From the NCBI RefSeq assembly GCF_003334815.1, contig NZ_QOWO01000014.1: 64,000 nucleotides of DNA. One strand, 5' to 3'. Below are positions 39,008-42,218 of the stretch, in pieces (the first letter of the stretch is position 1; every line of letters starts with the position of its first letter). The position numbers and the translations under genes were made by a program. The stretch comes from Escherichia coli (GTDB taxonomy: Bacteria > Pseudomonadota > Gammaproteobacteria > Enterobacterales > Enterobacteriaceae). The notes below the pieces were generated by a model, which worked only from the letters and a program-made list of their open reading frames with translations, searched no databases and was not told the DNA's origin.

Positions 39008-40372
39008 TTGATTACACATATTAGCCCGCTTGGCTCCATGGATATGTTGTCGCAGCTGGAAGTGGATATGCTTAAACGCACCGCCAGCAGCGACCTCTAT
39101 CAACTGTTTCGCAACTGTTCACTTGCCGTACTGAACTCCGGTAGTTTGACCGATAACAGCAAAGAATTGCTGTCTCGTTTTGAAAATTTCGATATTAACG
39201 TCTTGCGCCGTGAACGCGGCGTAAAGCTGGAACTGATTAATCCCCCGGAAGAGGCTTTTGTCGATGGGCGAATTATTCGCGCTTTGCAGGCCAACTTGTT
39301 CGCGGTCCTGCGTGACATTCTCTTCGTTTACGGGCAAATCCATAACACCGTTCGTTTTCCCAACCTGAATCTCGACAACTCCGTCCACATCACTAACCTG
39401 GTCTTTTCCATCTTGCGTAACGCTCGCGCGCTGCATGTGGGTGAAGCGCCAAATATGGTGGTCTGCTGGGGCGGTCACTCAATTAACGAAAACGAGTATT
39501 TGTATGCCCGTCGCGTCGGAAACCAGCTGGGCCTGCGTGAGCTGAATATCTGCACCGGCTGTGGTCCGGGAGCGATGGAAGCGCCGATGAAAGGTGCTGC
39601 GGTCGGACACGCGCAGCAGCGTTACAAAGACAGTCGTTTTATTGGTATGACAGAGCCGTCGATTATCGCCGCTGAACCGCCTAACCCGCTGGTCAACGAA
39701 TTGATCATCATGCCAGATATCGAAAAACGTCTGGAAGCGTTTGTCCGTATCGCTCACGGTATCATTATCTTCCCTGGCGGTGTGGGTACGGCAGAAGAGT
39801 TGCTCTATTTGCTGGGAATTTTAATGAACCCGGCCAACAAAGATCAGGTTTTACCATTGATCCTCACCGGCCCGAAAGAGAGCGCCGACTACTTCCGCGT
39901 ACTGGACGAGTTTGTCGTGCATACGCTGGGTGAAAACGCGCGCCGCCATTACCGCATCATCATTGATGACGCAGCTGAAGTCGCTCGTCAGATGAAAAAA
40001 TCGATGCCGCTGGTGAAAGAAAATCGCCGTGATACAGGCGATGCCTACAGCTTTAACTGGTCAATGCGCATTGCGCCAGATTTGCAAATGCCGTTTGAGC
40101 CGTCTCACGAGAATATGGCTAATCTGAAGCTTTACCCGGATCAACCTGTTGAAGTGCTGGCTGCCGACCTGCGCCGTGCGTTCTCCGGTATTGTGGCGGG
40201 TAACGTAAAAGAAGTCGGTATTCGCGCCATTGAAGAGTTTGGTCCTTACAAAATCAACGGCGATAAAGAGATTATGCGTCGTATGGACGACCTGCTACAG
40301 GGTTTTGTTGCCCAGCATCGTATGAAGTTGCCAGGCTCAGCCTACATCCCTTGCTACGAAATCTGCACGTAA
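39008..40372 (+). CDS. ppnN: Nucleotide 5'-monophosphate nucleosidase (LOG family), 454 aa
   Basis: LOG-family PGGxGTxxE motif ([14 protein letters not shown]). Confidence 0.93.
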
Positions 40373-40380
40373 TCTCCGCT

Positions 40381-40417
40381 CCCCCGGTGACGTTTGTTGC
40401 CGGGTTTTCTCGTTTTT
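40381..40417 (+). terminator. Candidate intrinsic terminator after ppnN
   Basis: CCCGG-TGACGTTTGTTG-CCGGG followed by TTTTCTCGTTTTT. Confidence 0.45.
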
Positions 40418-40928
40418 GGTCACTTACTCATCAACTCATTTCATTTGTTATATGAATGTTTCTTACCACCCTCACGCGACAAATATCATCACAGTTAATA
40501 TGTCATACAATTTATGTTGCAACGCAAACGTTTCCCTATTTTCATAAACCGTATTTTATCGCTATGAAAAAGAAATTATCGCCATGATTAACTAAAAGTA
40601 TTGATTTTTTCAGTTCAACCTACATATATTGCGCGCCCCGGAAGAAGTCAGATGTCGTTTAATGGGCAAATATTGCCCTTAAATTCTCTTTTACTTTTGA
40701 TTTACAGAGTAAAGCGTTGGGATAATCTATCTTCCAAGTAGATTATTGTATTTGAGATCAAGATCACTGATAGATACATAACTTGTGTGTATCTTTCCGC
40801 CCTCAAATTATTACGGCGGTAAATGATTAAGCCATCGCCGATAGACAGATTTCATTTTTACGGTCAGGCACCTTCCCGGGCTGAACTGGCTAAAAGCTGA
40901 ATTATTTGCATTCCTCCAGGAGAAATAG

Positions 40929-42218
40929 ATGGAAACGACTCAAACCAGCACGATTGCGTCGAAAGACTCTCGTAGTGCCTGGCGCAAGACAGACACCATG
41001 TGGATGCTGGGCCTTTACGGCACGGCAATCGGCGCGGGCGTGCTGTTCCTGCCAATCAACGCCGGTGTTGGCGGTATGATCCCGCTGATCATCATGGCTA
41101 TCCTTGCGTTCCCGATGACGTTTTTTGCTCACCGCGGCCTGACTCGCTTCGTACTGTCTGGTAAAAACCCGGGCGAAGACATCACCGAGGTTGTAGAAGA
41201 ACACTTTGGTATTGGCGCAGGTAAACTGATTACCCTGCTCTACTTCTTCGCTATCTACCCGATCCTGCTGGTTTATAGCGTGGCAATCACCAATACCGTT
41301 GAAAGCTTCATGTCTCACCAGCTGGGTATGACGCCACCGCCGCGTGCGATTCTATCGCTGATCCTGATCGTGGGTATGATGACCATCGTTCGCTTCGGTG
41401 AGCAGATGATCGTTAAAGCGATGAGTATTCTGGTATTCCCGTTTGTTGGCGTACTGATGCTGCTGGCTCTGTACCTGATCCCGCAGTGGAACGGCGCTGC
41501 ACTGGAAACGCTGTCTCTGGACACTGCATCTGCAACCGGAAACGGTCTGTGGATGACCCTGTGGCTGGCAATTCCGGTAATGGTGTTCTCGTTCAACCAC
41601 TCTCCGATCATCTCTTCTTTCGCCGTTGCGAAGCGTGAAGAGTACGGCGATATGGCAGAACAGAAATGCTCGAAGATCCTGGCATTCGCACACATCATGA
41701 TGGTGCTGACCGTAATGTTCTTCGTCTTCAGCTGTGTACTGAGCCTGACTCCGGCAGACCTGGCTGCGGCTAAAGAGCAGAACATCTCGATTCTGTCTTA
41801 CCTGGCTAACCACTTTAACGCACCGGTTATCGCGTGGATGGCTCCGATTATCGCGATTATCGCTATCACCAAATCCTTCCTCGGTCACTACCTGGGCGCA
41901 CGTGAAGGCTTCAACGGTATGGTGATTAAATCTCTGCGTGGTAAAGGTAAGTCTATCGAAATCAACAAGCTGAACCGTATCACTGCGCTGTTCATGCTGG
42001 TAACGACCTGGATTGTTGCCACCCTGAACCCGAGCATCCTGGGTATGATTGAAACCCTGGGCGGTCCAATCATCGCGATGATCCTGTTCCTGATGCCGAT
42101 GTACGCAATTCAGAAAGTACCGGCAATGCGTAAGTACAGCGGTCACATCAGCAACGTATTCGTTGTCGTGATGGGTCTGATTGCAATCTCCGCAATCTTC
42201 TACTCTCTGTTCAGCTAA
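40929..42218 (+). CDS. sdaC: Serine:H+ symporter (HAAAP family), 429 aa
   Basis: Full-length [34 protein letters not shown]... Confidence 0.95.

Follow-up and report, generated by a model that had tools for sequence, protein, structure and literature searches.

Two probably unrelated palindromes upstream of sdaC in Escherichia coli

Introduction

The sdaCB genes serve serine uptake and deamination, and their control region is already a known hub for CRP, PurR, YieP, Lrp and ArcZ. There are two palindromes in this region, GGGCAA-ATA-TTGCCC (palindrome 1) and AGATACA-N9-TGTATCT (palindrome 2), and the question they raise is whether they are binding sites for regulators, as an earlier note on this DNA had proposed. 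The DNA considered here is a stretch of 64,000 nucleotides of Escherichia coli (contig NZ_QOWO01000014.1), called the window throughout, and its positions are converted to those of U00096.3 by adding 2,887,300.

The ppnN-sdaC spacer and its known regulators

The spacer begins after the ppnN stop codon at 40372, ends before the sdaC ATG at 40929, and is 556 bp long (40373-40928), so that the earlier note was correct about its length and about both flanking genes. It has a GC content of 38% and contains no annotated features, and every one of the 5,426 complete E. coli genomes matches it with an identity of 95-100%. The general idea that such a long, AT-rich spacer harbours regulator sites is also sound, with YieP, PurR, CRP and, by ChIP, Lrp already documented there.

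Freddolino and colleagues (PMC8282354) detected a peak of protein occupancy in front of sdaC, and two YieP sites were validated in that work; their published sequences are located in the window at 40443-40457 and 40498-40512. The pull-down bait used in that study maps to 40490-40675, which cuts palindrome 1 and leaves palindrome 2 outside. The two YieP sites show identities of only 0.04 and 0.34 among 73 non-Escherichia genomes. Because they are almost unconserved outside Escherichia, YieP control of sdaC looks like a recent acquisition.

A PurR operator, ACGCAAACGTTTCCCT, is found at 40522-40537 with zero mismatches to ACGCAAACGTTTNCNT, and at least 12 of its 16 consensus positions are matched in 56 of 72 orthologs. 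Although this box was found independently, it is the in vivo PurR site for sdaC-sdaB published by Cho et al. (2011; motif AGGGAAACGTTTGCGT), and it was therefore set aside as a new find. The operator is kept across genera, and its stronger half-site switches between lineages. It is located only 9 bp from the second YieP site. Given this proximity and the purines present in rich medium, the rich-medium occupancy peak credited to YieP could be partly due to PurR. The pull-down lysate of the YieP study had earlier been probed with a purR-promoter bait.

Further inputs are reported from other work. Lrp shows ChIP enrichment upstream of sdaC, the small RNA ArcZ pairs with the ribosome-binding site at -13 to -2 of the sdaC mRNA, and the sdaC promoter is regulated by Crp, with sdaC induced upon cAMP addition. 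There is also a direct repeat, TTATCGCTATGA and TTATCGCCATGA, at 40556-40567 and 40576-40587, whose copies are spaced by 20 bp (two helical turns). This repeat is placed between the PurR box and the upstream promoter P1 described below, and its ATTTATC part is kept in other genera.

Inverted repeats in the spacer

Each of the two palindromes occurs exactly once in the window. The earlier note had their sequences right and their coordinates too low by 10: palindrome 1, GGGCAAATATTGCCC, occupies 40664-40678 rather than 40654-40668, with an extended imperfect form at 40658-40683, and palindrome 2 occupies 40772-40794 rather than 40762-40784. Both are upstream of sdaC as described, and the distance of about 150-270 bp given previously is corrected to 251-265 bp from the ATG for palindrome 1 and 135-157 bp for palindrome 2.

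Perfect inverted repeats were counted in the spacer and in 2000 dinucleotide-preserving shuffles of it. With a minimum arm length of 6 bp there are 4 repeats where 1.9 are expected (p = 0.13), and with a minimum of 7 bp there are 2 where 0.49 are expected (p = 0.09). Neither value is significant, and thus the spacer palindromes as a group are not clearly above chance. Two of the four are polymorphic within E. coli.

The remaining two repeats are absent from the earlier note. The first, ATAATCTA-N9-TAGATTAT at 40722-40746, is the longest perfect inverted repeat of the spacer. It is polymorphic in E. coli, reading GATTATCTA in strains R12 and EC69, and just a short CCAC-N7-GTGG core is common to other genera, within which Escherichia has one pair changed from C-G to T-A. 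The right arm of this repeat overlaps the sole match to the Lrp consensus in the spacer (40736-50, 3 mismatches). The second, TTTACT-N12-AGTAAA, is found at 40690-40713.

The statement that the palindromes are not terminators holds up. A terminator scan reports the ppnN terminator alone (40383-40404), and no 3′ end is mapped within 40600-40999. A reading of palindrome 1 as a terminator or attenuator was likewise rejected, both because the terminator scan does not call it and because the Term-seq tables contain no mapped 3′ end for it. The intrinsic terminator of ppnN itself, at 40383-40414, consists of a 9-bp stem followed by a T tract, and its Term-seq 3′ end at U00096.3 position 2927709 corresponds to window position 40409.

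Conservation among orthologous spacers

The comparison draws on 80 sdaC loci, one per species, from across the Enterobacteriaceae, of which 76 have ppnN as the upstream neighbour. In these 76 loci the spacer is always long (436-648 bp). Their spacers were aligned together with that of the window, giving 77 sequences, and 73 of the genomes are non-Escherichia. Among these 73, identity to E. coli is 0.34 for 40373-40737, 0.78 for 40738-40803 and 0.54 for 40804-40928. The best-conserved block of the spacer is therefore 40738-40803, and this block holds palindrome 2.

The upstream promoter P1

A promoter, P1, is predicted by a sigma-70 scan upstream of both palindromes, on the given strand, with a -35 element TTGATT at 40601-40606, a -10 element TATATT at 40625-40630 and a GC-rich discriminator. 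Palindrome 1 is located about 30 nucleotides downstream of this -10 element. Promoter-up insertions described in cya mutants, +A at 2927924 and +ATT at 2927928 of U00096.3, map to window positions 40624 and 40628 and yield TACAAT or TATAAT, which are better -10 hexamers within 40621-40630. Frendorf et al. described a -10 box with a GC-rich discriminator and treated this upstream site as 'the' sdaC promoter, while stating that no sdaC promoter had been experimentally verified.

Palindrome 1

There are only two representatives of palindrome 1 among the 77 aligned spacers, namely the window itself and one close Escherichia relative, and its left arm is 12% identical to E. coli in the 73 non-Escherichia genomes. 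In Escherichia whittamii and in a divergent E. coli lineage the sequence is CTGCCAAATATTGCCC, in which two of the six pairs are broken, and strain EC69 reads GGGTAA, which breaks the palindrome without compensation. Conservation in orthologous regions, which the earlier note had named as the check on its proposal, is thus lacking for palindrome 1. Within E. coli, the 61-bp context of the palindrome is identical in 4,890 of 5,423 genomes.

Other genera have the conserved, non-palindromic sequence AATGGTAGCCTTCGCGCCCGTAAAT at the position of palindrome 1. More broadly, a strongly conserved AATG-n-TAGCCTTCGCGCCCGTAAAT occurs in the non-Escherichia genera at positions homologous to 40658-40690 and is replaced in Escherichia. 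The ancestral element at the palindrome 1 position looks like an extended -10 element (TG-n-TAGCCT, with a variable base at n) followed by a GC-rich discriminator. Since palindrome 1 is restricted to E. coli, is broken in relatives and replaces a conserved element, it is best seen as a product of sequence turnover, probably a by-product of turnover at this ancestral TG-n-TAGCCT and GC-rich promoter-like module. E. coli also carries a direct repeat here, with CATATATTGC at 40623 and CAAATATTGC at 40667.

A small protein or leader peptide at palindrome 1 was considered and found to be a weak candidate. The open reading frame has 29 codons in E. coli and 13 codons (MSLMVAFAPVNSL) in other genera. 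The 13-codon frame covers the homologous position in 34 of the 77 genomes, and its length does not differ between Citrobacter, Enterobacter and Klebsiella. Only 25 of 77 sequences have ATG as the first start codon, a Shine-Dalgarno sequence is lacking and few of the substitutions are synonymous. In addition, the variable base falls on the 'n' of the TG-n-TAGCCT extended -10 element.

Palindrome 1 most likely has no dedicated regulator, a lack of function that we infer from the sequence comparison. Since conservation outside Escherichia is also missing from the validated YieP sites, non-conservation is weak evidence against a function of palindrome 1. An E. coli-specific function may exist, its chance being lowered by the non-conservation.

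The CRP box and a predicted promoter P2

Haycocks et al. (2015; PMC4287617) reported a CRP ChIP-seq peak at sdaC in ETEC H10407 with the motifs AGTGATCTTGATCTCA and AGTTATGTATCTATCA. The reverse complement of the first is TGAGATCAAGATCACT at 40753-40768 (centre 40760.5), the primary CRP box, which has 8 of 10 matches to TGTGA-N6-TCACA in all 77 orthologs. By itself the CRP consensus is common in the window, with 30 matches where 25 are expected by chance. The reverse complement of the second is TGATAGATACATAACT at 40768-40783, a CRP-like motif that holds the left arm of palindrome 2 and has only 5-7 of 10 consensus matches in most orthologs. E. coli is split by an A/G polymorphism at 40755, so that the left half of the CRP box reads TGAGA or TGGGA, and most other genera have G. 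Over 40745-40805, 2,042 E. coli genomes have the sequence of the window, and another 3,383 carry 1-3 differences.

Downstream of the CRP box, on the given strand, there is a predicted promoter, P2. Its -35-like element CTGATA (40767-40772; 52 of 77 orthologs) is 17 bp upstream of its -10-like element TATCTT (40790-40795; 69 of 77 orthologs), which would place the transcription start at about 40802. P2 scores 8/12 and was not reported by the sigma-70 scan. If the predicted start at 40802 is taken as +1, the coordinates give -41.5 for the centre of the CRP box. Conservation of the promoter spacer (40773-40789) exceeds what polymerase requires, for example at AAATG upstream of the -10 element, which hints at an additional factor.

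An inverted repeat CCGCC-N13-GGCGG is located at 40797-40819, directly after TATCTT, and other genera have GCCCG...CGGGC at the same place. This exchange of one G+C-rich pair of arms for another suggests that the beginning of the P2 transcript may keep a short G+C-rich dyad or a 5′ hairpin.

Palindrome 2 and the ancestral dyad

Palindrome 2 covers the spacer and -10 region of the predicted P2. In the 73 non-Escherichia genomes its right arm has an identity to E. coli of 0.97 and its left arm of 0.64, and the palindrome is invariant in four E. coli alleles. The right arm, TGTATCT, is this conserved (97%) because it overlaps TATCTT. The left arm adjoins the -35-like CTGATA and lies inside the published secondary CRP motif.

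The alignment reveals a related dyad, GATACATT-N9-AATGTATC, at 40769-40793, with arms at 40769-76 and 40786-93. Salmonella, Citrobacter youngae and Yokenella have it in perfect form, and perfect arms of at least 6 bp are found in 40 of the 77 genomes and of at least 7 bp in 34. On average 6.8 of the 8 positions are complementary, compared with at most 3.1 in most slid registers. There is no sign of covariation over and above the conservation of each column: in a clean alignment of 60 sequences, 88.8% of cells are paired, compared with 87.9% after shuffling of the 3′ letters, and one pair is changed on both sides, in a single lineage. Thus the dyad is old and both of its arms are conserved, and nothing shows selection for symmetry as such.

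The distance between the GATACA and TGTATC cores is 9 bp in E. coli compared with 13 bp in the form present in other genera, so that a dimer of fixed geometry could not bind both forms. Judging by the alignment, palindrome 2 is a remodelled E. coli version of the ancestral dyad. Its conservation appears to be explained by the -35-like and -10-like elements of a core promoter, and not by demonstrable selection for symmetry. As regulator binding sites, the two palindromes part ways: palindrome 2 does fall in a conserved, CRP-bound region, and for palindrome 1 the proposal fails by the earlier note's own criterion.

That note had also recommended a comparison with known sites, and the primary validated sites for YieP, PurR and CRP coincide with neither palindrome. 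Several regulators were rejected individually. The YieP sites (40443-57 and 40498-512) are located farther upstream, and ArcZ has its pairing site at -13 to -2 of the mRNA. The Lrp SELEX consensus YAGHAWATTWTDCTR has no match on either palindrome, its counts in the whole window are those expected by chance, and an Lrp site at the palindromes was rejected for the lack of a consensus match on both. Resemblances to NsrR-like, CytR-like and LysR T-N11-A sites were dropped, as the spacing does not appear to fit.

Interpretation and alternatives

We consider it probable that the two palindromes are unrelated, palindrome 2 being the core of a CRP-dependent sdaCB promoter and palindrome 1 a young sequence specific to E. 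coli. According to this model, CRP would bind the invariant box at 40753-40768, and RNA polymerase would use CTGATA (40767-72) and TATCTT (40790-95) to start near 40802, with CRP at -41.5 as in class II activation. Both the start and the -41.5 spacing are predictions. The right arm of palindrome 2 would be the -10 region, and its left arm would lie just downstream of the -35 element, within the weak second CRP-like motif. The palindromic look would come from the old dyad GATACATT-N9-AATGTATC, whose arms are each conserved and which would have been remodelled in E. coli. Palindrome 1, about 30 nucleotides downstream of the upstream promoter, would have replaced an element conserved in other genera. 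If the main promoter needs CRP, cya mutants would be expected to gain fitness by mutations that strengthen the CRP-independent P1. Against this explanation, palindrome 1 is nearly fixed in E. coli (4890/5423).

Perhaps palindrome 2, or the ancestral dyad, is instead the operator of a dimeric repressor, Lrp or another regulator, that would sit across the CRP-dependent promoter from its -35 to its -10 element. Such an operator would account for a dyad so widespread (40/77 with perfect arms of 6 bp or longer, 6.8/8 positions complementary versus at most 3.1) and for promoter-spacer bases such as AAATG being conserved beyond the needs of polymerase. However, the pairing is explained by column conservation (88.8% versus 87.9%), the only double change is found in a single lineage, and there are uncompensated mismatches in many genera, for example GATAGATT in 14 and GATGCATT in 8. 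Kluyvera and Escherichia have each rebuilt a 7-8 bp dyad in shifted form, which speaks for a protein that reads it, yet the resulting core distance in E. coli of 9 rather than 13 bp would be intolerable for a fixed dimer. Candidates for the protein fare similarly: Lrp is enriched upstream of sdaC by ChIP but its consensus has no match on the dyad, and ATACATT is also the half-site of the AcrR operator but the AcrR spacing is 4 bp and not 9. We regard a dimeric repressor as unlikely. A narrower proposal, that the dyad found throughout the Enterobacteriaceae would be the operator of an unassigned repressor, perhaps a TetR-like protein reading the AcrR-type half-site ATACATT, appears distinctly unlikely. 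If it were true, serine uptake and catabolism would be gated by an input besides CRP, PurR, YieP and Lrp, and the remodelling in E. coli would have changed that input. More generally, if the conserved core-promoter dyad were an operator, a well-studied operon would have one more regulator and the conservation of the promoter spacer would be explained.

It is also quite improbable that both palindromes are chance features of an AT-rich spacer, with the overlap between palindrome 2 and promoter elements a coincidence. The counts of inverted repeats are indeed within expectation (p = 0.13 and 0.09) and two of the four palindromes are polymorphic within E. coli, but palindrome 2 is located in the most conserved block of the spacer, where many genera share a dyad. 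Least probable, and very doubtful in our estimate, is that the palindromes are RNA hairpins in a leader of about 290 nucleotides made from P1, where they would act on mRNA stability, attenuation or translation. The promoter-up mutations do define a -10 element at 40621-40630, upstream of both palindromes, and the YieP and PurR sites are in turn upstream of P1. Transcription from P1, if it is active, would include both palindromes. The local folds are stable, at -10.9 kcal/mol (z = -4.6) and -9.9 kcal/mol (z = -3.6), and a U-rich stretch follows palindrome 1. However, any palindrome folds, and thus these local z-scores carry no information. The 304-nucleotide leader as a whole is not unusually structured (z = -1.37), for which reason a structured long leader was rejected. 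A known RNA family was rejected as well, since Rfam covariance models give no match in 40000-41300 at E-values up to 1. In addition, palindrome 1 is not called by the terminator scan, and the leader contains no mapped 3′ end. Palindrome 1 lacks conservation and its breaks are uncompensated, and palindrome 2 lacks covariation. The right arm of palindrome 2 is invariant as DNA, like a -10 element.

Palindrome 2, read as the core of the CRP-dependent promoter, is in effect the CRP-bound core promoter region that has already been published, and is largely known. The present analysis places both palindromes relative to the known sdaCB inputs and is of small importance in itself.

Comparison with known systems

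Palindrome 1 resembles intrinsic terminators in that it is a short hairpin containing G+C and has a U-rich stretch behind it. It differs from them in that the U tract is interrupted (UUAAAUUC), the terminator scan does not call it and no 3′ end is mapped there.

The known sdaCB inputs YieP, PurR, Lrp and ArcZ share the spacer and the regulatory purpose of the region that contains the palindromes, which is a multi-input control region. None of these four inputs overlaps with a palindrome.

The operator of the TetR-family regulator AcrR, TACATACATT-CACA-AATGTATGTA in the acrR-acrA intergenic region of K-12 (159-182 of the K-12 sequence used), has the half-site ATACATT/AATGTAT, as do the arms of the ancestral dyad at sdaC, and each of the two elements overlaps a core promoter. 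Between the arms there are 4 bp in the AcrR operator and 9 bp at sdaC, a difference of half a helical turn. Moreover, the half-site match holds for the ancestral, non-E. coli dyad alone, whereas E. coli has diverged (ATACATA and TGTGTAT). An AcrR operator at sdaC was rejected, as the half-site fits and the spacing (9 versus 4 bp) does not.

In class II CRP-dependent promoters, of which galP1 and melR are examples, the centre of the CRP site lies at -41.5. As in this class, the sdaC region has a CRP box (with 8/10 matches) over a weak -35 element, a non-consensus -10 element, in vivo occupancy by CRP and cAMP-dependent expression. The spacing at sdaC is exactly -41.5, yet it is counted from a predicted start. 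What sets sdaC apart from standard promoters of this class is another CRP-like motif that overlaps the box and has its centre 15 bp downstream, together with the conserved dyad between the promoter elements.
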